Positions 9,776 to 48,895 of a DNA stretch of 64,000 bases are shown here, in pieces (positions within the stretch are counted from its first letter, which is position 1; the number at the start of each line of letters is the position of its first letter). The stretch is taken from assembly GCA_038087875.1 (NCBI GenBank), contig CM075994.1, forward strand, positions 310,001 through 374,000. Direction: 5' to 3'. The stretch comes from Malacoraja senta (taxonomy: Eukaryota). Made by a program: the position numbers and the translations under genes. The notes beneath the pieces were generated by a model. The model was not told where the DNA came from. It saw nothing but the letters and a program-made list of their open reading frames with translations, and did not search any database.

Positions 9776-10051
9776 CAAAGAGAGGTGAAGGAGTATCTAA
9801 TCATGGGAAACAACAAGGTAGCGGGAGGGGAATTGTTTGCCATATCTGTGGAATTCTCTGCCACAGAAGCAGGGCTGCCAACTCTCATGCATTGAGCGTG
9901 AGAATCACGCATTTAACCAAATTCTCACACTCTCACACTGATCACAAATTTCTCACGCTCTGTCGTGAGAAATTCGGCGATCAACGAAAATTTCAAAACT
10001 CATATCAACTGTATGGGCCGCAGGTGTTGGAGACCCGGCGCTGAGGGAGGG

Positions 10052-10322
10052 ATGGAAGCAGAAGCAGCGGCGGGGACAGATGCGGACAGGGAGCCTGGGC
10101 TGGCAAGTGTTTGCCTGGCTGGCGAGTGTTTGCCAGGCTGGCGAGTCGCTCACTACAGCTCTGGCCATGGAGCAGCTTCAGTGCAAGAGTCCCGGGCCGT
10201 CGGAGGCGTCGGAAGCGTTGCGCCACTGCCATGAGAGTCTCTGTGCCGAATTTGCCCAGGTGACTGGCATGGATCAGGCTGCGGCTCGGTGCATCCTGGA
10301 GGACAACCAGTGGCTGCTGGAA
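10052..10322 (+). pseudogene. TDP2: Tyrosyl-DNA phosphodiesterase 2 first exon (UBA-like domain), isolated copy
   Basis: LCAEFAQVTGMDQAAARCILEDNQWLLE followed by a phase-0 gtaagt donor resembles vertebrate TDP2 (LCVEFASVASCDAAVAQCFLAENDWEME, recalled). A 19-nt tandem duplication shifts the ATG at 10052 out of frame. I recognised no downstream TDP2 exons. Confidence 0.75.
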
Positions 10323-11781
10323 GTAAGTACCAAGAACTGGGTAGAAACGGTGGAAGATAGTGGCCTTCAAATGGGGGTGGTTGGAGAAAGCATCCTGCTT
10401 GCCTGCCTGATTTTCATTTACTCTAACTGCAGGAAAAAATGTTCCCAATGTTGGGGGAGTTCAGAACCAGGGGTCACAGTTTAAGAATAAAAGGTAGCCC
10501 AGTTAGGACTGAGATGAGGACACACTTTCTTCACGCAGAGAGTTGTGAATCTTTGGAATTCTCTGCCACAGAAGGCAGTGGAGGCCAATTCACTGGATGT
10601 TTTCAAGAGAGAATTATATTTAGCTCTTGGGGCCAGTGAAATCAAGGGATATGGGGGAAAACAGGAAAGATGTACTGATTTTAGATGAACAGCCATGAAT
10701 GTTGGCTCGAGGGCTGATTGGCCTATTCCTGCACCTATTTTCTATGTTTCTATGCTTGAGAATATGGCAATAAAAGTCAACCACTTGATTTTTAAGTATT
10801 CATGCATGGTTGAAGTATAATCATAGAGTGATACAATGTGAAAACATGCTCTTCAGCGCAATTTGCCCACACCCGCCAACATGTCCCAGCTACACTACCT
10901 GCTTTTGGTCCATATCCAAACATGTCCAATCCATGTATCAGTAACTGTTTCTTAAATGTTGAGATAGTCCCTGCCTCAAGTACGTCCTCTGTCAGCTTGT
11001 TCCATATACCCACCACCCTTTGTGTGAAAAAGGTTACCCCTTAAAAAGTTACCTCTTAAAAATACTTCAAACAAAAAACATTGAAATCATACTTCTACAA
11101 TGCACTAAAACATGATTTTAATACATCAAATTTCAAAAAGTCCCTACTGTGCGAGGGGGGACAACCCCCTTCCACACACTCCCCCCACTTAGTTGCTCCA
11201 CTCCCTCACCGGGTACCCCCAAGGCCAGTGATCAGGGATCGCTCAGCCTTCCCACGTTCAAAAACGCTCCGTGGCCCCTGATTCAGACAGAGAGCACTGC
11301 CAGATGTGAGCGGGGAACTGAGGCCAGTTGTCCGTGATGTCTGGATCCCAATGCTCAGCGCTTCGTGTTTCAGGGTTGGCTAATGTTATTGATTTTTAAT
11401 TAGCCTGAATTGTAATTAGTTAACAAAACCTTAATTTATTAACCCGGAATATCCAGGGGGATGGGATAAGTGTAATATTAAAAATGCAAGGTGCCAGGCT
11501 GCCTGCCACAGCATACAGCCCCGATAACCCATTATTTCCTTCATTTAAATATTGGGAAGGTAGCACTATTGTAAGTTGCCACTCCACTATTATGTTTGTT
11601 TACCTCACTGTCTATTTCTAACCCCCCCCCCCCCCCCACACACACACACACACACATAAAATTCCTTTGACAGGTTGAATAGAAATGTCCCCCAATCTCG
11701 TTGTTTTATTAATTGCACACGTAGATAAACAGCCTCAAGGAGTGTAATCGGAAACTGATTCAGATGCAATGATTGAGAGAC

Positions 11782-12160
11782 AATTGACAATAGACAATAG
11801 GTGCAGGAGTAGGCCATTCGATTCCTCTTGTTATAAAGGCCAACATGCCATTCGCTTTCTTCACTGCCTGCTGTACCTGCATGCTTACTTTCATAGACTG
11901 ATGTACAAGGACCCCCAGATCCCATTGTACTTCCCCTTTTCCCAACTTGACGCCATTTAGATAGTAATCTGCTTTCCCGTTTTTGATACCAAAGTGGATA
12001 ACCTCACATTTATCCGCATTAAACTTCATCTGCCATGCATCTGCCCACTCCGCCAACCTGTCCAAGTAGCCTGCATTCTCATAGCATCCTCCTAACAGTT
12101 CACACTGCCACCCAGCTTTGTGTCATCTGCAAATTTGCGAATGTTACTTTGAATCCCTTG
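11782..12160 (-). mobile_element. CR1 RT fragment plus tail
   Basis: ORF 11760..12065: WADAWQMKFNADKCEVIHFG. Confidence 0.85.
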
Positions 12161-12469
12161 AGAACTTGTTCAAAGATGGGGCATATTTTAAAGGAGTGAC
12201 AGAGATACTTGCAGGGGAATGTGTTGGGAGGTTCTTATTTGTCTTTAGTTTTAGCTTGAACCAGGACATCTGAAGATTCAAAGTTTAATACAGTAATTGT
12301 GCTGATACTGACTCCAACCAACCACGTAATGAACATCATCCATTCCATAGGTTTTATTTTTCTGATGCCATTTAAACTTCACTTGGATTTCAATCACTTC
12401 AATGTAAAAGTAATTGGGAATGGGGAGCATTGTAACAAAAACTTGCCCTCGGTACATATTTACAAGAGT

Positions 12470-13215
12470 CAAGAGTGTTTTATTGTCATATGTCCTGGAC
12501 AGGACAATGAAATTCTTACTTGCTGCAGCACTATGTGAAAAAGGAAACTTTATATGTAATGGGGGAAAAAAAGAAAAAGTTCAATGAATAACAAATATAG
12601 TGCAAATAACAAATAATAATATAGTCTTTTGCAGTTCAGTGCTCAGAGCTTATTCGTTGTGTTTAATAGCCTGATGGCTGTGGGGAAGCAGCTGTTCCTG
12701 AACCTGGATGTTACAGTCTTCAGGCTCCTGTACCTTCTTCCTGATGGCAGAGGAGAGATAAGTGTGTGGCCAGGATGGTGTGGGTCCTTGAATATTTTGG
12801 CTGCCTTTTTGAGGCAGCGACTACGATAGATTCCTTCGACGGTGGGGAGGTCAAAGCCAGTGATGGACTGGGCAGTGGTCACAACTTTTTGAAGTCTTTT
12901 TTGCTCCTGGACGTTCAAGTTGCCGAACCGGGCCGCGATGCAAATAGTCAGAATGCTCTCTACCGTGCACTTGTAGAAGTTTAGGAGAATCCTCTTTGAC
13001 ATGCTGAATCTTCGTAATCTTCTCAGGAAGTAGAGTCACTGATGTGCATTCTTTACAATTGCATCGGCGTGCTGGGTCCAGGAAAGGTCTTCTGTTATAT
13101 GCACGCCACAGGAATTTGAAGTTATTGAACCTCTCCACTATTGTCCCGTTGATATAAACAGGATTGTGGGTCTTCATCCTTCCCCTACCAAAGTCCACAA
13201 TCAGTTCCTTGGTCT
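12470..13215 (-). mobile_element. Rex1-like LINE 3' fragment
   Basis: ORF 12643..13002; same family as 2380-3065. Confidence 0.85.
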
Positions 13216-14779
13216 GTAATATAATAATGTATGCATGTTGGTAGGTGCAATCAAAACAAAGATCTTTTTATCATTGTTGTGTTATGAATACCACATAAAT
13301 TATTATGTACTCTCAAGATCACATTCAATAGAATTAATATTCCTTAAATATATAGTCATTGGACTGCATTTCCGAATAGTCCCAGCTGAGAGGAAGACAG
13401 CAAAATACTGAAAATATTGGGGTGAAAATGACTTCAGGGCAGTTTGTTGGGAAAATGAAGGAAATGGTAACAGAATACATATACAGCTGAGTGAGTATAA
13501 TGTTATGGATGAAAAATTGTGTTCAACCAATTGATGACTTCTTTGACAACGTAACTAGCATGTTAGATAACAAGGAAGCCAATGGAAGCCAATTATACAT
13601 AATTTGGTCTGTGAAGTGCCCCATAAAAGATTACCGCATTAGATAAGCACCTGCAGACTTGAACGTAATACGTTAAGTCCAGGGGGTCAAATTTGAGGCT
13701 TTTTGTGTGCATCAGATATATTGTCAGTGCAGAGGGGCTAGGAGCAAGGCCAATTGTGCATCCAGAGTCAAGGTCTGGAATAGTACTAGGTGTGCAGTCA
13801 AAGCTGGGACAATGCGAGTGTTCAGCACTGGGAACCTGAGCAGGTAAGCAGCTATGATCAGGGTAGAATAGGGGGCCAGGTGTAAGGCTCGATTCAGGGT
13901 CATGAATGAGAGAAGGTATGCAACTGGAGTCAGGGTCAGGAGTGGTACCAGGTGTGCAGTGAGACCCAGGTTGGTCAACATGGGCCAGGTGTTTGATTAT
14001 AATCTGATTTCCATACATGAAGATACTAAGATCATTCATGTGCTGCACCTGTTGATCAGAGCCTGGCTCTAGTGTGGAATGTAATTAGGAATGTAATTTA
14101 GCCTAACCTTATTCATAGCTAATCCAATTTAAAGCATAAATATTGCATTTAAGTGTAAGTTAAAAGACTCGCAACAGTATGCACCAGATTGCACAATTTC
14201 AAACTGAAAAATGCAAAAGCTCCATACCAATGGGAGGGGGGACACCCCTCTCCCACACCCTCTTCCCCCCTCAGTCACTATGCTCCCTCGGGCTTGGTCT
14301 CTCGCAATCTCTCACTCCCAACTCACCCAATGTTCGCAGCCCTGCAGAAGGCAGTGGAAGCCAATTTACTGGAGAGTTGGAGGAGTGGCCAATTCACTGA
14401 AGGAGAGGCCAATTCAAGAGAGAGTTGGATAAAGGTCTTAGGGCTAATGGAATCAAGGGATATGGAGAGAAAGCAGGAACGGGTTACTGATTCTGCATGG
14501 TCATCCATGCTCATAATGAATGGTGGTGCTCGATGGAAGGTATTCCTGCACCTCATTTTTATGATTCTTTGTTTCTATGTTTCTATATCTAGAAATGAAA
14601 AAGTCCCATAAATATTTTTCTATCCAACGGTACACAAACAGCGCCTAAGGCAAGCAGCAGTGGTACACAGGTCTGGGGTAATATACAATTAATGTACAAT
14701 GTGGCCTTACTTGGGCAATGACCTCATATGTAATGGTTTGAAGGTTACCTTGAAGATGATAGAAAATAGCATAAGAAAT

Positions 14780-20365: not shown

Positions 20366-21812
20366 TGGAGTGGAGTCAGGGGATATGGGGAGAAGGCAGG
20401 AACGGGGTACTGTTGGGGATGATCAACCATGATCACATTGAATGGCGGTGCTGGCTCGAAGGGTCGAATGGCCTACTCCTGCAACTATTGTCTATATTGT
20501 CTACCTTGTGTACCATTTTTGCCCACCTGATTTCCTTGTTTAGCTTCCTCCTTAGTTCTCGAAACTCCTCCAGTGATACACTTGATCCCAGCTGCTTATA
20601 CCTGGCCCAAGCCTCCTTACTCTTGACCAGAGCCTCAATTTCCCTAGTCAGCCAAACTTCCTTCTGCTCACCTGCCTTGCCCTTAACTCCAACAGGAATG
20701 TGCATGTCCTGGACACCTGTCTGCACACTTATAAAAACATCCCACTTTCCTGACATTCCTTTTCCTTCAAACAACCTACTCCAATCAACTTGAGCGAGTC
20801 CCTCTCTCAGACCCTCAAAGTTGGCCTTACCACAATTTAGCATTTAACTTGTGGGCCCTCTCTGTCCCTATCCATAACTATCTTGAACTTAATCGAACAG
20901 TGGTCACTGATCCCAAAAACTCATCCACGAACACATCATCATCTTGCCCGTCCCAATTTCCCAAGACTACCGATAATACAATCATCATAATCATCACAAT
21001 CATACAATACATCATAACAATCAAATCCAAGATGGCAGCACACCTCCTGTCTCTAACTGTGTCTGTTTGTTTTACAAATATGACTGAGTGACTGAGTGAA
21101 TTTTCTGTAAGTCATCTGCGAGCATTATCATTCGAATTATCATTCCGTCGGGAAACCACGGGACGGATTTCTTATAGGACTCTCCCTGCACTAATGTGTG
21201 GCGTCATTGGTTGAGGCGAAATAGTCTGGCTGCTTTTCTCCTCGATTTACGGGATCTCAAAGTACAATGTCGCTGCTCGTGGCTGCTCTTTTCCTATTAA
21301 TTTGGAGCGGCACCAGGGGAAGCCCCCACGGGACTGAAAACTCCTGTCCAGTCAACTTTACACCGGTTTTACCATGCCGGGGGACGTGCGCTTCTGGCAG
21401 TCCGCTGGGCATTAGTTTGTCACCTATGACTCTTCTGCTCCCCGCATCTATGGACTTGGCCCGTCTGGTCAGCTTGATGGCCTTACAAGACAACTTTATT
21501 ATTCCTTCAAGTTGCCTTCGTGACTTTTTTATATTTTTAAAGATTAAAAAAGATCATTTAAGCAAATCTATAAGGTCTGATTATAGGTGTATAATTGTTT
21601 TGTTGCTGCTGATTTCAGGGAATGTTCAACCTAACCCAGGCCCAGGCTCTGCTGAGTCTGCTGTTAATTTTAACACCCTGCTGAATTTGAATCAAGGTCT
21701 GGACTTGGTTTCATCCATTTGAATGTGCGCAGTATGATTGCTAAAATGGATATGATTCGTATCTGGGCTCATTCAACTGATGCTGATGTTATTGTCATAT
21801 CTGAAACTTGGC

Positions 21813-24800
21813 TAAACAAAGCAGTTTTAAACAAGGATATCAACATTGACGGCTACAATGTGTATAGGACTGACCGACCCAAGAAGGGCGGAGGGGTCGC
21901 AGTCTATGTCAAGTCTAAGTTTCATGTGAAGATCCGTCTCTACATCAGTGAGTAAGCAATTTGAACTTCTGGCTCTTGACATGGAAATCTCAAAAACTCT
22001 CCACATCACTGTCGTCGGATGCTATAGGCCACCTTCAGCTATCAGCTGCACCTCACCATCTTTAATGGAGCTTTTATCCGGGTTAAACTTTAATGAAATT
22101 GTCCTTATTGGTGACCTAAACTGGAACTGGCTGCTACCAGCATCAGATGATTTTAAAGCATTTTGTGATTCGTTTAATTTCTTTCAGATTGTTGACAGTC
22201 CTACTAGACCTAATCTGAAATGTCCGGAAAAATCTTCTTTAATTGAACTTATCTTAACTAATGTTCCTCATAAATATTCTGCTGCTTCAGTTTAGGTCAC
22301 CAATAAGGACAATTTCATTAAAGTTCAACCCGGATAAAAGCTCCATTAAAGATGGTAAGGTGCAGCTGATAGCTGAAGGTGGCCTATAGCAACCGACGAC
22401 AGTGATGTGGTTCCGTGTCATCATAAAGCGGGACATGAAACATTTTGTGGAGCAAGCATTTTTTCATGACCTGTTTCTCTTTGGCTGGGCGAAAATTAAT
22501 GTAATTCCTGAGGTTGAAAATGCCTGGAAATTCTTTTATGATGGTTTTTATTGAAATTGTTAACAAGCACGCTCCTTTTAGGAAGTATAGAATAAGGGGC
22601 AGGGTTAATGCATGGTTTACGTCAGAGTTATCCATTTTACTCCATGAGCGCAATGTGGCATGGTCTAAAGCCAGGAGTACTGGTCTTGGATCAGACTGGT
22701 TGCTCTTTAGGCAGCTGCGAAATGCAAGCACAGTTGCAATTAGAAAAGCCAAAGCTGATCATTTCCTTACTGAAACTTCAAATAACCTAAACAATCCGTT
22801 AAAATTCTGGAAAACCATTAAATCAATAACTGGAAATAAAAATGTTATTGAGCTACCTCCATGCATTTTCAAAGACTACCCAAATTTATGAAAAGGCTGA
22901 CATGCTTGGTTGTTTTAATGAGCATTTCATTGCCTCTGGTTCACTTTTCAACTCTCAAAACACAGCTCAAGGCTCCTCTGCTTGCTCTGATAGTAGTTGT
23001 TTTTTTGAGGGACAAGCTTTTACTTTTGATGCTGTTACACTTTCAGAGGTGCATAAGGCCCTGAGATGTTTAGACACAAAAAAATCGGCACGTCCAGACA
23101 ACCTTGAGCCTTACTTCCTAAAGTTAGCCGCTGATTTTATTGCACTGCCTCTGACTTATCTTTTTAATCTATCCCTGGAGACAAACGAAATTCCCCTTAT
23201 TTGGAAATCTGCCTATGTTCTCCCACTGTTAAAAGGGGGGGACCCCACTGTGCTAAACAACTATAGGCCCATCTCCAAACTGTCTGTTTTAATTAAGGTG
23301 CTGGAATCCATTGTAAACCAACAACTGAAGGACTTTTTATCAACTAACAGTATTTTATCTGAATTTCAATCTGGTTTTAGGAAAAAATATAGTACGTCAA
23401 CAGCTGCTTTAAAAGTAGTAAATGATTTTATTGAATTTTTAGACAATAAGCAACACTGTGCAGCCCTTTTCGTTGACCTATCAAAGGCTTTCGATACTGT
23501 GGATCATGCCTTATTGTTACAAAGACTATGCAGCATCGGTTTGTCTGATCAAGCTGTCTGTTGGTTTAAAAACTATCTATCAGGCAGATCCCAGTGTGTG
23601 CGAGCAGAAGGTATTACTTCTAGCTCTCTTAATGTATCCAAGGGTGTGCCACAGGGATCCGTTCTAGGACCTTTATTATTTACTATTTACATTAATAGTC
23701 TAGATCATAAAGCTCCGAACGCAAATTTTCACTTTTATGCTGACGACACAGTGATATATTGCTCTGCGTCTACCCCAAATCAGGCTCTCTGTCAGCTCCA
23801 AACTGCTTTTAACACTGTGCAACGTAACCTGTGTGATTGAAACTTGTTTTAAACAAAGCAGTTTTAAACAAGGATATCAACATTGACGGCTACAATGTGT
23901 ATAGGACTGACCGACCCAAGAAGGGCGGAGGGGTCGCAGTCTATGTCAAGTCTAAGTTTCATGTGAAGATCCGTCTCTACATCAGTGAGTAAGCAATTTG
24001 AACTTCTGGCTCTTGACATGGAAATCTCAAAAACTCTCCACATCACTGTCGTCGGATGCTATAGGCCACCTTCAGCTATCAGCTGCACCTCACCATCTTT
24101 AATGGAGCTTTTATCCGGGTTAAACTTTAATGAAATTGTCCTTATTGGTGACCTAAACTGGAACTGGCTGATACCAGCATCAGATGATTTTAAAGCATTT
24201 TGTGATTCGTTTAATTTCTTTCAGATGGTTGACAGTCCTACTAGACCTAATCTGAAATGTCCGGAATAATCTTCTTTAATTGATCTTATCTTAACTAATG
24301 TTCCTCATAAATATTCTGCTGCTTCAGTTTAGGTCACCAATAAGGACAATTTCATTAAAGTTCAACCCGGATAAAAGCTCCATTAAAGATGGTAAGGTGC
24401 AGCTGATAGCTGAAGGTGGCCTATAGCAACCGACGACAGTGATGTGGTTCCGTGTCATCATAAAGCGGGACATGAAACATTTTGTGGAGCAAGCATTTTT
24501 TCATGACCTGTTTCTCTTTGGCTGGGCGAAAATTAATGTAATTCCTGAGGTTGAAAATGCCTGGAAATTCTTTTATGATGGTTTTTATTGAAATTGTTAA
24601 CAAGCACGCTCCTTTTAGGAAGTATAGAATAAGGGGCAGGGTTAATGCATGGTTTACGTCAGAGTTATCCATTTTACTCCATGAGCGCAATGTGGCATGG
24701 TCTAAAGCCAGGAGTACTGGTCTTGGATCAGACTGGTTGCTCTTTAGGCAGCTGCGAAATGCAAGCACAGTTGCAATTAGAAAAGCCAAAGCTGATCATT

Positions 24801-26863
24801 TCCTTACTGAAACTTCAAATAACCTAAACAATCCGTTAAAATTCTGGAAAACCATTAAATCAATAACTGGAAATAAAAATGTTATTGAGCTACCTCCATG
24901 CATTTTCAAAGACTACCCAAATTTATGAAAAGGCTGACATGCTTGGTTGTTTTAATGAGCATTTCATTGCCTCTGGTTCACTTTTCAACTCTCAAAACAC
25001 AGCTCAAGGCTCCTCTGCTTGCTCTGATAGTAGTTGTTTTTTTGAGGGACAAGCTTTTACTTTTGATGCTGTTACACTTTCAGAGGTGCATAAGGCCCTG
25101 AGATGTTTAGACACAAAAAAATCGGCACGTCCAGACAACCTTGAGCCTTACTTCCTAAAGTTAGCCGCTGATTTTATTGCACTGCCTCTGACTTATCTTT
25201 TTAATCTATCCCTGGAGACAAACGAAATTCCCCTTATTTGGAAATCTGCCTATGTTCTCCCACTGTTAAAAGGGGGGGACCCCACTGTGCTAAACAACTA
25301 TAGGCCCATCTCCAAACTGTCTGTTTTAATTAAGGTGCTGGAATCCATTGTAAACCAACAACTGAAGGACTTTTTATCAACTAACAGTATTTTATCTGAA
25401 TTTCAATCTGGTTTTAGGAAAAAATATAGTACGTCAACAGCTGCTTTAAAAGTAGTAAATGATTTTATTGAATTTTTAGACAATAAGCAACACTGTGCAG
25501 CCCTTTTCGTTGACCTATCAAAGGCTTTCGATACTGTGGATCATGCCTTATTGTTACAAAGACTATGCAGCATCGGTTTGTCTGATCAAGCTGTCTGTTG
25601 GTTTAAAAACTATCTATCAGGCAGATCCCAGTGTGTGCGAGCAGAAGGTATTACTTCTAGCTCTCTTAATGTATCCAAGGGTGTGCCACAGGGATCCGTT
25701 CTAGGACCTTTATTATTTACTATTTACATTAATAGTCTAGATCATAAAGCTCCGAACGCAAATTTTCACTTTTATGCTGACGACACAGTGATATATTGCT
25801 CTGCGTCTACCCCAAATCAGGCTCTCTGTCAGCTCCAAACTGCTTTTAACACTGTGCAACGTAACCTGTGTGATTGAAACTTGTTTTAAACAAAGCAGTT
25901 TTAAACAAGGATATCAACATTGACGGCTACAATGTGTATAGGACTGACCGACCCAAGAAGGGCGGAGGGGTCGCAGTCTATGTCAAGTCTAAGTTTCATG
26001 TGAAGATCCGCCTCTACATCAGTGAGTAAGCAATTTGAACTTCTGGCTCTTGACATGGAAATCTCAAAAACTCTCCACATCACTGTCGTCGGATGCTATA
26101 GGCCACCTTCAGCTATCAGCTGCACCTCACCATCTTTAATGGAGCTTTTATCCGGGTTAAACTTTAATGAAATTGTCCTTATTGGTGACCTAAACTGGAA
26201 CTGGCTGATACCAGCATCAGATGATTTTAAAGCATTTTGTGATTCGTTTAATTTCTTTCAGATGGTTGACAGTCCTACTAGACCTAATCTGAAATGTCCG
26301 GAATAATCTTCTTTAATTGATCTTATCTTAACTAATGTTCCTCATAAATATTCTGCTGCTTCAGTTTAGGTCACCAATAAGGACAATTTCATTAAAGTTC
26401 AACCCGGATAAAAGCTCCATTAAAGATGGTAAGGTGCAGCTGATAGCTGAAGGTGGCCTATAGCAACCGACGACAGTGATGTGGTTCCGTGTCATCATAA
26501 AGCGGGACATGAAACATTTTGTGGAGCAAGCATTTTTTCATGACCTGTTTCTCTTTGGCTGGGCGAAAATTAATGTAATTCCTGATGTTGAAAATGCCTG
26601 GAAATTCTTTTATGATGGTTTTTATTGAAATTGTTAACAAGCACGCTCCTTTTAGGAAGTATAGAATAAGGGGCAGGGATAATGCATGGTTTACGTCAGA
26701 GTTATCCATTTTACTCCATGAGCGCAATGTGGCATGGTCTAAAGCCAGGAGTACTGGTCTTGGATCAGACTGGTTGCTCTTTAGGCAGCTGCGAAATGCA
26801 AGCACAGTTGCAATTAGAAAAGCCAAAGCTGATCATTTCCTTACTGAAACTTCAAATAACCTA
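21813..26863 (+). repeat. Tandem repeat with 2037-bp period, about 2.5 copies, near-identical
   Basis: Equivalent ORFs start at 21948/23985/26022 and 22842/24879; junctions at about 23850 and 25887. Confidence 0.97.
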
Positions 26864-34039: not shown

Positions 34040-34045
34040 ATATGG

Positions 34046-36344
34046 TACACAAAAATGCTGGAGAAACTCAGCGGGTGCAGCAGCATCTATGGAGCGAAGG
34101 AAATAGGCAACGTTTCGGGCCGAAACCCTTCTTCAGACTGATAGAGGGTGGGGAGAAGAAAGGAAAAAAGAAAAAAGGCGGAGGAGGAGCCCGAGGGCTG
34201 GGGGAGGGGAGGAGACAACCAGATGGCTGATGAAGGGGCGGGGACAGCAAGGGCTAGCAGAATTGGGAGAATTCAATGTTCAAGCCCCCAGGATGTAGAC
34301 TACCCAAGCGGAATATGAGGTGCATTTCCTCCAATTTACGGTGTTGCTCGCTGTGGCCATGGAGGAGACCCAGGACAGAGAGGTCAGATACGGAATGGGA
34401 GGGGGAGTTGAATTGCTGAGCCACCGGGAGTTCAGGTTGGTTATTGCGGACCGACCGGAGGTGTTCGGCGAAACGATCGCCAAGCCTCCGCTTGGTCTCA
34501 CCGATGTAGATCAGCTGGCATCTAGAGCAGCGAATGCAATAGATGAGGTTGGAGGAGATGCAGGTGAACCTCTGTCGCACCTGGAACGACTGCTTGGGTC
34601 CTTGAATGGAGTGGAGGGGGGAGGTGAAGGGACAAGTGTTGCATCTCTTGTGGTTGCAAGGGAAAGTACCAGGGGAGGGGGTGGTATGGGAGGGAAGGGA
34701 AGAATTGACAATGGAGTTACGGAGGGAGCGGTCTTTGCGGAAGGCAGACATGGGGGGAGATGGGAAGATGTGGCGAGTGGTGGGGTCACGTTGGAGGTGG
34801 CGAAACTGACGGAGGGTCACTTGTTGTATGTGATGGCTGGTGGGGTGAAAGGTGAGGACTAGGGGGACTCTGCCCTTGTTGTGAGTGGGGGGATGGGGAG
34901 AGAGAGCAGTGTTGCGGGGTATGGCAGAGACCCTGGTGCGAGCCTCATCTATGGTGGAGGAGGGGAACCCCCGTTCCCTGAAGAATGAGGACATTTCAGA
35001 TGCCCTGGTGTGGAACGCCTCATCCTGGGAGCAGATGGAGATAGTGAGGTCAAAGAATGGTAGGGAAGTGTCGGAAATGGTCCAGGTGTATTTGAGTGTA
35101 CACCTGGACCAGGTGTATTTGAGTGTACACCTGGACCAGGTGTATTTGAGTGTACACCCACTCAAATACACCTGGACCATTTCCGACACTTCCCTACCAT
35201 TACTTGACCTCACTATCTCCATCGCAGGTGATAGACTCCTTACCGACATCCACTACAAACCTACCGACTCCCATGGCTATCTGGACTACACTTCTTCCCA
35301 CCCTGCTTCCTGTAAGGACTCCATCCCCCACTCCCAATTCCTCCGTCTACGCTGCATCTGCTCCCAGGATGAGGCGTTCCACACCAGGGCATCTGAAATG
35401 TCCTCATTCTTCAGGGAACGGGGGTTCCCCTCCTCCACCATAGATGAGGCTTGCACCAGGGTCTCTGCCATACCCCGCAACACTGCTCTCTCTCCCCATC
35501 CCCCCACTCACAACAAGGGCAGAGTCCCCCTAGTCCTCACCTTTCACCCCACCAGCCGTCACATACAACAAGTGATCCTCCATCAGTTTCGCCACCTCCA
35601 ACGTGACCCCACCACTCGCCACATCTTCCCATCTCCCCCCATGTCTGCCTTCCGCAAAGACCGCTCCCTCCGTAACTCCCTTGTCAATTCTTCCCTTCCC
35701 TCCCATACCACCCACTCCCCTGGTACTTTCCCTTGCAACCGCAAGAGATGCAACACTTGTCCCTTCACCTCCCCCCTCCACTCCATTCAAGGACCCAAGC
35801 AGTCGTTCCAGGTGCGACAGAGGTTCACCTGCATCTCCTCCAACCTCATCTATTGCATTCGCTGCTCTAGATGCCAGCTGATCTACATCGGTGAGACCAA
35901 GCGGAGGCTTGGCGATCGTTTCGCCGAACACCTCCGGTCGGTCCGCAATAACCAACCTGAACTCCCGGTGGCTCAGCACTTCAACTCCCCCTCCCATTCC
36001 GTATCTGACCTCTCTGTCCTGGGTCTCCTCCATGGCCACAGCGAGCAACACCGTAAATTGGAGGAAATGCACCTCATATTCCGCTTGGGCAGTCTACATC
36101 CTGGGGGCTTGAACATTGAATTCTCCCAATTCTGCTAGCCCTTGCTGTCCCCTCCCCTTCATCAGCCATCTGGTTGTCTCCTCCCCTCCCCCAGCCCTCG
36201 GGCTCCTCCTCCGCCTTTTTCCTTTTTTCCTTTCTTCTCCCCACCCCCTATCAGTCTGAAGAAGGGTTTCGGCCCGAAACGTTGCCTATTTCCTTTGCTC
36301 CATAGATGCTGCTGCACCCGCTGAGTTTCTCCAGCATTTTTGTG
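34046..36344. mobile_element. Palindromic (head-to-head inverted) Penelope-like element encoding RT C-terminus plus GIY-YIG endonuclease on both strands
   Basis: ORFs 34254..35249 (-) and 34885..36138 (+) have near-identical C-termini (CNxKRCNTC, NLIYCIRC..C..IYIGETKR, HFN, GLN). 15-bp TSD AACCTCCCTATATGG at 34031-34045 and 36345-36359. Confidence 0.93.
36256..36283 (+). ncRNA. Minimal hammerhead-ribozyme-like core at the Penelope terminus (mirror copy at 34109-34136, minus strand)
   Basis: CUGAAGA, helix II GGGU-UUCG-GCCC, GAAA, palindromic AACGUU; helix I is weak. Minimal hammerheads are an established feature of Penelope-like elements. Confidence 0.6.
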
Positions 36345-36359
36345 AACCTCCCTATATGG

Positions 36360-43547: not shown

Positions 43548-44258
43548 GAATGTACCTGGTTTGAGATACGGCCTGCTTTATCCCGCAAGACTAAGAGTCA
43601 CCTACAAGTCCAAGGAGCAATTTTTTACAGACCACGAAAAAGCACTGGAATATGCCAAAGAAATCGGTAACATGACCGTAGACTGAAGAATTTACATTAC
43701 TCCTTAGGAGTCAAGGACTGACAGGACCGCCAGATCTAAAAGGACCTTTAAAGTTCTTTTAAGAGCTTTAAGGACATTCGAAAACCGAAATGGACGGAGG
43801 ACATTGGAGAAAACCGTGATCTTTGTTTTTTTGTTTTTTTTTAATTAAACTTTTTTTTTTTTACTAATCATTATTATTATCTATATATTCATATCTAACT
43901 ATATATGTAACAACTAATACTTATTAAATATCCATATTACCAGTAAAATTATTAACATTAACATTTCTCATAAAAATTTAATACTGTATATGATTGATAA
44001 CAATGATTAATAATTAATAGTCTTTGATTAACGTAGAAATGAATTACATACTTATATTATATAGGAGGATATGTAAGAGGTAAATTAGCCTACGTCATAA
44101 TAAAGTTTGACGGTTTTTCTCTTTATTTTTCAATTTAAAATTAAATTTATAGATTTAGCGAAGAAATTAGTATGATATGTAGAGAATAATAACGTTGTGA
44201 ATTTTTGCTGTTTTTGAACTTTTCTGCAGGGATACGTGCTTATGTAAGTATGCATATG

Positions 44259-44326
<68 letters not shown>

Positions 44327-47300
44327 GTGTGTGTATGTATGGGTATGTATATAAGTTTGTTACTCCCAAAGAAGTTATTTGAATGTTAGAAATAATCTTT
44401 TTTTTTCTTCGGGCACGGAGCTGGGAATTTTTTTTCTTACAAAGGCTACGGAAGTCTTTAGAATTCTAGCCACGTTAGTGTGGCTATCACTAACTACACT
44501 AATTGTAGATGTAGTTCTTTTTCTTTCACCCTATACTAATCAAGTCTATCACTTTTTTCACTTTAAATATTTTTATAACTTAATGTTTGAATGGGAAAAC
44601 AAGACTAATACAAGGAGATGTGTTCGGAAGAGCGATGTATATGATTTTAAATTCATCTATTTGAAGTTCGGGAGCAGGGTCAGGTTTTATGTGTTGTACC
44701 TTCTGCTCGGTTATAGACCACCTTAGAAACAATATGCAAGATGTTAATATGACAAGAGGGGGTCAGGGAATAACATTTTGTAGTTGGAATGTCAAGGGAA
44801 TCAATGAACCAATTAAGAGAGGTAAAGTTTTGGCACATCTAAATTTAATCAAAACAGATATAATATTTCTCCAAGAAACACACCTTAAAAAGGAATCTCA
44901 ACATAGACTTAAAGCTAAGTGGATCGCTGAATCATATCATTCCTCTTTTTCCCGTAAGTCCAGAGGAGTTGCAATATTAATTCGTAAAGGAATACCTTTT
45001 ACGAACTCTTCAACAATAGTGGATATTGATGGTAGATATATTATATTAGTTGGAGAGTTAAATGGAGAAAAAGTGATTCTTCTTAATGTATATGGGCCTA
45101 ACTTTGATAACCCCATGTTTTTTAATAAAACATTTAATAAAATCCCTGAATTTACACAATATAAATTAATAATTGGAGGAGACTTCAATTGTACATTAGA
45201 TTCATACTTAGATAGATCATCAGGGCAAAAAAAAGTAAAATCTCAATCAAGTGTATTTCTAAATTCATTTATTAATACCACTAATATTAAGGATGTCTGG
45301 AGAATAGAAAACCCAACTGGACGGGAATATTCATTTTACTCACCAGTACATAAAACATACTCAAGAATAGATTATTTTTTAGTTGATTCTACGTTTATCC
45401 CATTTATTTATAATTCAAAATACCATAACATTATAATCTCAGACCACGCACCTGTAACATTCATGATTAAATTAAATGGAATGTCCGAGAAACAAGCATA
45501 TTGGAGATTTAACCCACAAATTTTGAACGAAAGATCATGCCAGGAATATATTATTAAACAGATTCAAATATTTTTTGAGGTAAATGACAACCCTGACACA
45601 CCTACTCTCTTATGTGGGAAACGTTTAAAGCGTTTGTTCGAGGTACATTAATTTCTGCTCAAGCATTTTATAATAAAGAGAACAGGATTAAGCAACAAAC
45701 ATTGGAAAGTGAAATCAAGCAACTAGATATAGAAAATGCGAGAATGCCATCTACTTTAAAACATAATAAAATTGCTGTATTGAAATATAAATTAAATAAA
45801 ATGTATTCAGAACAAGTAATAAAACTTTATCAAAAAACCAAACAATTACATTTTGAATTTGGAGACAAACCACAAAAATTATTAGCACGTCAGTTACGAA
45901 AAATGGAAGGGGAAAAAATAATTCATAAAATTAGAACAGAGACAGGAGAATTATTAAAAATGCCCAAGGACATAAATGATAGATTTCTCCAATACTATCA
46001 TAACCTTTATTCAACTAAAACCGTAGCACAATCAGAAGGAATAGCAGATTTTTTACTAAAATGTAATTTAAAAGGTTTAGATTCAAACGATAGAGAATTA
46101 TTAGAAAGGGAGATTACGATAAAAGATATTGAGGAGTCTATTGGCTCTTTAAAAAATGGTAAAGCAGTAGGACCAGATGGTTTAGGCTCCGAATTTTATT
46201 AAAAAAATTATGATTTGCTCTGCCCACGTTTACAAAGACTGTATGAGTATATCTATACTCAACAGAAACTTCCAGACACTTTAAATGAATCTATAATAAC
46301 ACTTATTCCTAAAGCTGATAAAGATCCGGAAGACCCGGGATCATATAGAGCAATTGCACTTTTAAATACAGATCAGAAAATATTAACTAAAATACTAGCG
46401 CATAGATTAAGTACAGTGATGAATAAATTAATACACCCTGACCAAACAGGCTTTATTCAGAAACGGTACTCATATTATAATCTAAGAAGATTATTTAATA
46501 TTATATATTCCAAGAGAATTATTAATGAAGATCTAGCAATAATCTCACTTGACGCTGAAAAAGCATTTGATCAGGTCGAATGGTCTTATTTATTTTCGGT
46601 GATGGAAAAATTGCAGCTAGGGGAGAAATTCTGTACATGGATAAAACTGTTATATACAAATCCCACGGCTAGAATATTTACAAACCAAAGGTTGTCATCT
46701 AAATTTAGCCTATCTAGAGGTTGTAGACAAGGATGCCCGTTATCTCCATTATTATTTGCGCTTGCTATTGAGCCACTTGCAGAAAGAGTCAGGGGGCATC
46801 CGGAAATACATGGGTATAACACAAAGGACACAGTGAATAAAATTTCTCTATACGCAGATGATGTATTAATTTACATTACAAAACCAGAAATTAGTATCCC
46901 AAACTTATTAAAGCTAATAACCCAATTTGGTTCACTTTCAGGATACAGAATAAATTGGAATAAAAGTGAAATTATGCCAATAAGGGAACATAACAAACAG
47001 ATAATACAACAATTTCCATTTAAAATAGTAAAGGAAAAATTTAAATATCTAGGTATTTATGTAACTAAGAAATATACATAATTATTTAAAGCAAATTTTC
47101 CCCCATTACTGAATAAACTACATAAGAATATTCAATACTGGAAAACACTTCCTATCTCAATGGTTGGCAAAATTAATGCCATAAAAATGATTTTTTTACC
47201 GCAAATATTATACCTTTTTCAGACAATTCCGATATATCTGGCAAAAAACTTTTTAAAAAAACTGGACTCTATTGTTAATGATTTTATCTGGGATTATAAG

Positions 47301-48895
47301 AATCATAGGATAAACAAAAGACATTTGTGTAAATCAAAAATAAATGGAGGCTTGGTTTTACCCAACTTTTTGTTTTATTTCTGGGCAGTTAATATTAAAA
47401 ATATGAATTTCTGGTTGGAAGAAATAGATCATCAACCAGACTGGTTAAAAATGGAAAAGGAAGATTGTTTACCTTTTGATATCGGTTCGATATTATTTGC
47501 TACGTCTAAATTAAACAAAAAAATTTATAGGGAAAACCCTATAATATTTAGTGCTATACGAATTTGGAAACAATTAAAAAAGACATTAAAATTAGATAAT
47601 TTATCACTTTTTCTTCCAATTGTGAATAACCCTTTGTTTAAGCCTTCATGGTTGGACGGGCGTTTTACACAATGGAAGAATTATGGAATTAAAAATATGG
47701 GACAACTTTACAAGGAAGGCACTTTTCTGACATTTCAGGAGTTGCAACAGACTTATGGACTTCGAGGAAATTATGATTTCAGATATCTTCAACTTAGAGA
47801 TTATGTAAAATCAAATACTCAAAATTTTCGAATTAGAAATTCAGAAATTCTTGATGAATGTTGGAACAAACATCCTAATACAGAAAAATTAATATCTTAT
47901 ATATATAATATCCTATTATACAGTGACATTCCATCGACGGACTTACACAGACAAACATGGGAAAAAGAATTAAATCAAATAATAACGAAAGATACTTGGG
48001 AAGAAAGTTTGCAACACATACATCAATGTTCATTAAACGCTAGACATTCTCTAATACAATTTAAAGTAATACATAGGTTACATTATTCAAAAACAAAACT
48101 ACATAAAATCTTTCAACATATCTCACCTATATGTGATAAATGTCAACATTTAGAAGCTACCTTATCTCATATGTTTGCAAACTGTATAAAAATTAAAAAA
48201 TTCTGGGTAAATATTTTCAGTATAATATCTAAAGTAACCAGCACACAATTGGACCCAGATCCAAAATTAATAATACTCGGAATATTAGAATTAAATCAAA
48301 CATTTAGAACAACACAAAGAAACTTTATTGATTATAGTTTAATAACAGGAAAAAAATGAATTCTAAAATTTTGGAAAGGCCCTACGGCCCCCACAATCAA
48401 AATGTGGATTATAGAAATGACGGAGACCTTAAACGTGGAAAGAATCAGATTCTCCCTGTTGGACAAACAGGAAGTATTCGTTGGAACATGGTCTCCTTTT
48501 ATTGATTACTTAAAGGGTCAGAATAGTTCAGCACAGGAACCTGACTAGCACTCGGGCTAAAGAATGGATGAAATGCTATACTTAGAAATGTACGAATATA
48601 TCTCGAATGAAGTTTTTTATTTTAATAAATTTTTCCATTCTTCTTTAACTATCTTTTTCCTTTTTTGTTTTTTTTTTGTTTTGTTTTTTTTTGTTTTTTT
48701 TTTGTTTTGTTTTTCTTCTCTTTCTTTTCTTTCTTTACTTCATCTATCTCTTTAGTTCTATTTAGTTTAAAAAAAAAAAGGCAAAAGGTATTGGAGACAA
48801 TGTAATAATAATTGACAATATTATCAATTTAAAAATGTAAGACTGTAATGATGTAAATAGGTTGTGTACTTATCTCCAATAAAAAATAAAAAATA
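43548..48895 (+). mobile_element. L1-clade LINE: ORF1 tail, long AT-rich spacer, near full-length ORF2
   Basis: ORF2 from ATG 44734 to TAG 48548: APE (SWNVKG, FLQETH, NVYGPN, GGDFN, SRIDY, SDH), RT (SLDAEKAFD, GCRQGCPLSP, YADD) and a C-terminal CxxC-H-C; a few frameshifts and stops; A-rich tail. Confidence 0.93.
44262..44322. repeat. (TA)n microsatellite
   Basis: Direct inspection. Confidence 0.97.

Follow-up and report, generated by a model that had tools for sequence, protein, structure and literature searches.

How did the first exon of TDP2 come to lie inside a transposon-like insertion in the genome of the skate Malacoraja senta, and what has become of it since? The insertion lies in a stretch of 64,000 nt on contig CM075994.1 (positions 310,001 to 374,000 of the forward strand; NCBI GenBank assembly GCA_038087875.1), which we call the window and to which positions refer unless a locus or contig is named. 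An earlier note on this stretch had described a cargo-carrying DNA transposon with terminal inverted repeats (TIRs) that disperses TDP2 exon 1 together with its splice donor. The dispersal was borne out by our analysis, but the outer TIRs were not the captor, because the cargo is bounded by a second, inner pair of termini and the inner element with its cargo also occurs alone with 5-bp target site duplications (TSDs). The insertion is very probably a two-layer non-autonomous Pack-type DNA transposon, in which an outer TIR element encloses an inner one with the TDP2 cargo; hAT transposases of the Blackjack/hAT5/hAT6 lineage likely mobilized both in trans.

The insertion and its TDP2 cargo

The insertion in the window is delimited by complementary 13-bp TIRs that match at 12 of 13 positions (left CAGGGCTGCCAAC, 9870-9882; right GTTCGCAGCCCTG, 14332-14344) and by an exact 6-bp TSD, CAGAAG, on both sides (9864-9869 and 14345-14350), all as previously noted. 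A 4-bp TSD with the ends moved by one base was rejected since the base preceding CAGGG differs among copies. When the flanks were rejoined without the insert they read as an ordinary CR1 3' fragment, and 72 of 179 BLAST matches among fetched loci spanned the joint by at least 20 nt on each side, in agreement with the reported splitting of a CR1 fragment. The reported length of 4.5 kb holds for the window copy and includes two private insertions of long interspersed nuclear elements (LINEs); the usual family form is about 3.3 kb.

The first ATG of the TDP2-like exon (10052) is found 182 nt inside the outer left end, and the exon has a GC content of 64% versus 44% for the whole element. Its frame is disrupted in the window copy by a 19-bp duplication typical of what we term the deleted subfamily, and the part at 10167-10322 has a 24-nt deletion relative to the parent gene. 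The translation of 10167-10322 matched Pfam UBA_4 above cut-off (E 6e-6), had the UBA chain of human TDP2 (6q00_B) as its sole PDB match and showed 81% and 72% identity to TDP2 of Leucoraja and Rhinoraja, respectively. The captured exon stops at the TDP2 exon 1/2 boundary and is followed by a GTAAGT donor, so that the GC-rich first exon with donor placed about 180 bp inside the element was correctly recognized. A tblastn search of the window with skate TDP2 gave residues 1-62 as a strong match and nothing else better than E 0.006, a match located inside a LINE endonuclease open reading frame (ORF); no further TDP2 exon was thus recognized in the window, in line with the earlier note.

Two tandem, apparently complete seven-exon TDP2 genes (TDP2a and TDP2b) were found with a skate TDP2 query on another contig (C19:4603402-4712637); a search with PF03372 had been swamped by LINE endonucleases. 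Window positions 10024-11041 aligned at 79-82% identity to the parental 5' untranslated region (UTR), exon 1 and start of intron 1, including CR1 and short interspersed nuclear element (SINE) fragments of the parent intron, and the cargo of the window copy contains about 700 nt of intron 1 and no exon 2. Because the cargo holds intron and intronic repeats, it was captured at the DNA level and is no retrocopy. The parent genes have no such TIRs at exon 1. TDP2 exons downstream of the insertion, a peptide without homology to TDP2 and termini of unrelated insertions, each of which had been named as grounds for abandoning the TDP2 capture, were all absent.

Two further observations concern the TDP2 genes and their copies. 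Outer-family elements without TDP2 are found both in intron 4 of TDP2a (at about 4687337-4691208) and some 24 kb upstream of this gene. The copy at L074:1255-1720 is without the SEAAGP segment, which is also missing in TDP2 of Leucoraja and Amblyraja and kept in the TDP2 genes here; either a parallel deletion between short repeats or an exchange between copy and gene might account for this.

An inner element carries the cargo

In the L074 copy the TDP2 exon is located behind a terminus unlike the outer end, and a search with that terminus yielded the inner element. It has CATGGGCCGCGG...CCGCGGCCCCTG ends, a length of about 1.9 kb and 171 exact matches of its left 15-mer. Thirty unselected loci with the inner terminus fell into 13 standalone copies that hold the exon, 8 copies nested within an outer element and 9 that lack TDP2. 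The inner TSD is 5 bp long: 21 standalone copies with both ends, scored by eye, showed 10 exact duplications, 3 with one mismatch, 1 ambiguous and 7 without any. TDP2 DNA begins about 75 nt inside the inner left end, at a TCA common to the parent, and includes promoter-proximal sequence, while the TDP2-free inner relatives have the arms alone in common with the element. Nested inner copies all occupy one site in the outer element; GTTCA is found on both sides in L272, and the left copy is eroded in most others. L310 is an outer element with an empty GTTCA site and has a TDP2-free inner relative near its left arm.

These copies bear on the simpler model, in which TDP2 exon 1 was taken up directly by the outer hAT-like element. 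The window copy seen on its own fits that model, since it has outer TIRs with a TSD and a cargo that begins about 150 nt inside the left end, and subfamilies with outer ends also hold varied interiors. Its cargo, however, is bounded by inner termini: the copy retains 12 nt of the inner left end (10012-10023) and the inner right arm to 11280, followed by ATTCA. The standalone inner element with cargo has 5-bp TSDs of its own and more upstream TDP2 DNA than the window form. The single-step model is largely refuted by these standalone copies and we consider it highly improbable. The deleted subfamily, to which the window copy belongs, is without the rest of the 75-bp inner left arm and without the promoter-proximal piece of TDP2.

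Copy number, subfamilies and target site duplications

All 40 scored matches in a search with 9870-10440 were near full length, and 39 of them were other loci with 90-92% identity; the 2,573 candidates of this search do not represent a copy number. A 25-mer at the exon end gave 535 exact matches, and 0 in the control. As this 25-mer is intact in 51 of 98 sampled copies, we estimate about 1,000 copies of the exon, a figure that is lowered by the bias of the sample towards good copies and would be raised by unpurged haplotigs. The outer left 34-mer had 688 exact matches, some of which are internal left ends; among its first 30 loci, 8 contained the TDP2 exon and the rest other interiors, some with two to three stacked left ends.

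For 43 distinct loci with both outer ends, TSDs of 6 bp (12 loci), 7 bp (11), 8 bp (3), 5 bp (1) and 9 bp (1) were found, and 15 loci had none. Exact TSDs of at least 5 bp thus occurred in 28 of 43 loci, versus 0.07 per shuffle of the flanks. The mixture of 6-, 7- and 8-bp duplications is real and not due to chance extension, because the lengths represent different registers against fixed ends. Several loci with TIRs, the TDP2 exon and differing TSDs, which had been proposed as a check on the transposon, were therefore found. The family combines TIRs and TSDs, a host gene fragment with an intact parent elsewhere, capture at the DNA level, re-transposition and non-autonomy, the features by which multicopy Pack-TIR elements are recognized.

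Several structural variants of the outer family were observed. A subfamily with two or three stacked left ends is represented by L218:2184-5470, L088:7337-10000, L216-L223, L227 and L228; among its interiors are stretches rich in CpG, and one of these contains TGACGTC together with a short ATG...AG/GTGAAT segment, which may be another captured first exon. In the double form of L224, L225 and L226 (on C1), an outer left end, a partial TDP2 exon and a GA-rich tract precede another left end with a full exon. Template switching between copies is suggested by L272 and L295, which are chimeras of front-end and nested forms. At L058:4887-5394 an element of about 500 bp with related (C/T)AGGG(C/T)TGCC...GGCAACCCTA ends adjoins a family copy.

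Superfamily assignment and order of events

Most hATs produce 8-bp TSDs, and the earlier note had accordingly called 6 bp atypical. The canonical length was found in 3 of the 28 exact outer TSDs, and the inner TSDs are 5 bp long. The CAGGGCTGCCAA terminus presumably resembles Blackjack-type ends. We take both elements to be putative hATs because of this terminal style and because hAT5, hAT6 and hAT7 make 5-, 6- and 7-bp TSDs (PMC12730594). A 6-bp TSD therefore does differ from the canonical length but is within the known hAT range (hAT6), and the family makes 7 and 8 bp as well. By TSD length alone the inner element fits hAT5 (10 exact and 3 one-mismatch duplications in 21 standalone copies); the outer element compares with hAT6 in 12 of 28 exact TSDs, with 7 bp in another 11. 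Both elements share short TIRs with hAT5, hAT6, hAT7 and Blackjack, and hAT5 and hAT6 fall inside the Blackjack-containing lineage (PMC12730594).

The following order of events is proposed. The inner element would first have taken up about 1.2 kb of TDP2 DNA (promoter-proximal sequence, 5' UTR, exon 1 and the start of intron 1), which came to lie between a left arm of 75 bp and the right arm; the resulting structure is observed directly, and the mechanism was likely template switching during gap repair, with a short TCA match at the left junction. The ~1.9-kb inner Pack element then spread alone, as is seen from its standalone copies. One copy inserted at GTTCA in an outer CAGGGCTGCCAAC element, and this composite multiplied in turn with TSDs of 6-8 bp, as is seen from the nested copies. 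Deletion of most of the inner left arm and of the promoter-proximal piece, visible in the structure and probably later than nesting, would have produced the ~3.3-kb window subfamily. Finally, the window copy landed in the CR1 fragment and afterwards received its two LINE insertions, both of which can be read from the locus itself. When 98 copies were sorted by class, the majority sequence of the standalone class (n=35) was 8.3% different from TDP2a, that of the nested class (n=20) 8.8% and that of the deleted class (n=43) 10.1%. Five of the 35 standalone copies have the undeleted long exon, which no nested or deleted copy has, and the 19-bp duplication occurs almost solely in the deleted class.

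A number of observations weigh against parts of the two-layer reading. Of 144 pattern matches to an 'empty site', 15 loci were examined and 14 belonged to another repeat with this stretch and not to the outer element. The cargo tree (100 sequences) agrees with the proposed order in outline and is mostly unresolved (4 of its 97 branches are starred), and a few copies are placed wrongly by the automatic class labels. Copies diverge by 4.6-5.0% from their own majority in all three classes; with divergence about equal among the classes, the order is based on structure and on shared characters and not on age, and the bursts were therefore close in time. The outer TSDs are mixed, unlike the fixed lengths described for hAT, hAT5, hAT6 and hAT7. 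In the search for an autonomous partner, a PF05699 profile, TIR scans (30 + 20 loci), a de novo scan for TIRs and TSDs and tblastn of ORFs gave no transposase gene linked to either end pair in the 50 hAT-domain stretches that were examined out of 150 scored matches, some overlapping.

The last two points also speak for movers from another TIR superfamily with loose TSD length; hAT5-7 are each defined by one TSD length plus transposase (PMC12730594), whereas TSDs of 6, 7 and 8 bp occur together in the outer family and these searches gave no transposase. Against this, short TIRs starting with CAGGG or CATGG and short subterminal repeats fit hAT, and hAT groups with 5-, 6- and 7-bp TSDs exist (PMC12730594). 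We consider a non-hAT origin improbable and retain hAT transposases as the likely source of mobility. Tblastn with hAT ORFs showed no transposase remnant in the outer element among the matches listed, and the one element ORF tested besides the exon had no transposase Pfam match. A candidate partner ORF in L226 was rejected as an L1 insertion. The de novo scan recovered an unrelated CAGGGCCGG element with 8-bp TSD; at L199:2769-5388 and L205:2720-5962 there are hAT copies, likewise unrelated, that have CAGGGCCGG ends and 8-bp TSDs and retain remnants of a transposase.

Fate of the captured exon

The earlier note had regarded the element as able to seed exon shuffling, and the sequence of the copies allows for this: the donor GT is retained in 88 of 98 copies, the frame is open from the second ATG in 54 and from the first in 32, and standalone and full nested copies keep promoter-proximal DNA. 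Some copies might accordingly serve as alternative promoter and first exon, joining a UBA-like N-terminus to host genes, much as a bat Helitron with the first exon of NUBPL forms a fusion with a host transcript (PMC4224331). Omega is near 1, however, with values of about 0.94 without CpG and shared sites and 0.79 with both (58 copies) and 8 stop changes, which argues for neutral decay. In one polyA raw-read run (perhaps of another species), of which 6% was read, 107 reads in both orientations covered the locus at a depth of about 37 on either side of the donor, and no loose read end at 10322 was among the 15 of 26 listed. The proposed RNA check for splicing from this donor thus showed a flat depth and no sign of splicing; the reads fit read-through and are weak evidence against use of the donor.

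In the NCBI protein model XP_032892111.1 (Amblyraja radiata, granzyme K-like), exon 1 is the Pack-specific variant of the exon, with its donor in use, which would also favor shuffling. In M. senta, truncated copies with a common rearrangement lie in sense orientation 7 and 16 kb upstream of two granzyme duplicates on C1, one for each. This insertion is most likely orthologous and would predate the split from Amblyraja, because it begins where the model does and the translation of its reversed left TIR with flank gives the model's next segment. The chimeric model itself is probably a prediction artefact, since it frameshifts in the exon, has the reversed TIR as next exon and lacks an evident signal peptide. 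Both granzyme-upstream copies here have stops in the UBA frame, and no native signal-peptide exon of the granzyme genes was located with confidence. Protein searches for longer proteins gave just the XP_032892111.1 chimera, and a profile search of 50% representatives gave none, its 4 matches being an exon read-through ORF, TDP2, a TDP2-like exon of another animal and an unrelated repetitive protein.

Current use of the copies for exon shuffling is therefore unlikely in our judgement, and the cargo is most likely a neutral passenger for which new exon use would be a rare by-product. Equally doubtful is a broader proposal in which the promoter-exon-donor cassette passed from a 5-bp-TSD to a 6-8-bp-TSD transposase specificity, was amplified about a thousandfold and now provides real alternative first exons in some copies (e.g. 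granzyme K). If copies did act as real first exons, vertebrates would have an exon-shuffling route on the scale of Pack-MULEs.

Comparison with known Pack-type elements

The nearest animal counterparts are the multicopy Pack-TIRs surveyed by Tan et al. 2021 (PMC8277862), such as Pack-hAT-N8_XT, which carries the CAPSL 5' UTR. Like the skate family, they are non-autonomous, hold a GC-rich 5' gene fragment with a distant parent and were re-transposed with distinct TSDs. Among reference genomes, the survey counts just four elements in multiple copies (three from frog and one from alligator; the frog example is present three times), and its cargo has a median length of 224 bp; its main text mentions neither shark nor skate and does not use the word nested (PMC8277862). 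The skate family differs in its ~1,000 copies, in a ~1.2-kb cargo with coding exon and donor, and in its two nested layers. A first exon in thousand-copy numbers has a precedent in HelibatN3 of Myotis bats (PMC4224331), which is a rolling-circle Helitron, whereas the skate elements belong to the cut-and-paste type and have TIRs and TSDs. For HelibatN3 a fusion transcript has been reported; in the skate family, the one polyA run showed no sign of splicing at the donor. In Pseudocercospora fijiensis, a hAT likewise amplified host gene sequence, histone H3, to hundreds of inactive copies (PMC6710886); that case is fungal, inactivated through RIP (repeat-induced point mutation) and involves a carrier described as a complete hAT, in contrast to a vertebrate first exon in non-autonomous nested elements. 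No published account of the TDP2-carrying skate family was found in the literature searched, which did not extend to Repbase and Dfam.

The skate TDP2 family is a Pack-TIR at Helitron-like copy number. Multicopy animal Pack-TIRs are rare and small in the survey (PMC8277862), and here cut-and-paste transposition in a vertebrate amplified a coding first exon to such numbers. The intermediates, namely the empty inner family, standalone Pack, nested composite and deletion derivative, are still in the genome, so that the capture route and the idea of a hand-over by nesting can be tested. About 1,000 donor-bearing, CpG-rich cassettes also represent a natural experiment on exonization frequency. On the practical side, Pack copies contaminate gene models (probably the Amblyraja granzyme K-like one) and the mapping of TDP2 reads. 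The mixed 6-, 7- and 8-bp TSDs point to an unusually loose transposase cut spacing or to several partners.

Features of the window

Table 1. Features of the composite element and its insertion site in the window
Feature	Position	Strand	Remarks
Left TSD	9864..9869	+	CAGAAG, within CR1 3' fragment
Outer left arm	9870..10011	+	13-bp TIR (9870-9882) and CTCACGC-type subterminal repeats; common to TDP2-free subfamilies
Inner left terminus, remnant	10012..10023	+	TATGGGCCGCAG; CATGGGCCGCGG in other copies
Captured TDP2 genomic DNA	10024..11041	+	5' UTR, exon 1, ~700 nt of intron 1
First ATG and N-terminal part of exon 1	10052..10166	+	out of frame via 19-bp duplication (repeat 10093-10146)
Open 52-codon part of TDP2 exon 1	10167..10322	+	phase 0; N-terminal part of UBA-like domain
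Splice donor	10323..10328	+	GTAAGT
Inner element right arm	11054..11280	+	terminating CCGTGGCCCCTG
Right copy of inner 5-bp TSD	11281..11285	+	ATTCA in window, GTTCA in most nested copies
Outer interior	11286..13993	+	non-coding patchwork, no transposase remnant found
Private CR1-like LINE fragment	11780..12157	-	not in other aligned family copies
Private LINE fragment	12464..13213	-	not in other aligned family copies
Outer right arm	13994..14344	+	with TIR (14332-14344); common to all subfamilies
Right TSD	14345..14350	+	CAGAAG; CR1 fragment resumes after

Other repeats were observed elsewhere in the window. Tandem units of about 2,037 bp that are 99.7% alike and contain reverse-transcriptase fragments occupy 21802-26863 and represent a recent duplication or an assembly artefact. 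An inverted pair (98.5%) of Penelope-like sequence with GIY-YIG is located at 34044-36348, and an AT-rich, near full-length LINE ORF2 in several frames (endonuclease, reverse transcriptase, zf-RVT), followed by a T-rich tract, at 44130-48700.

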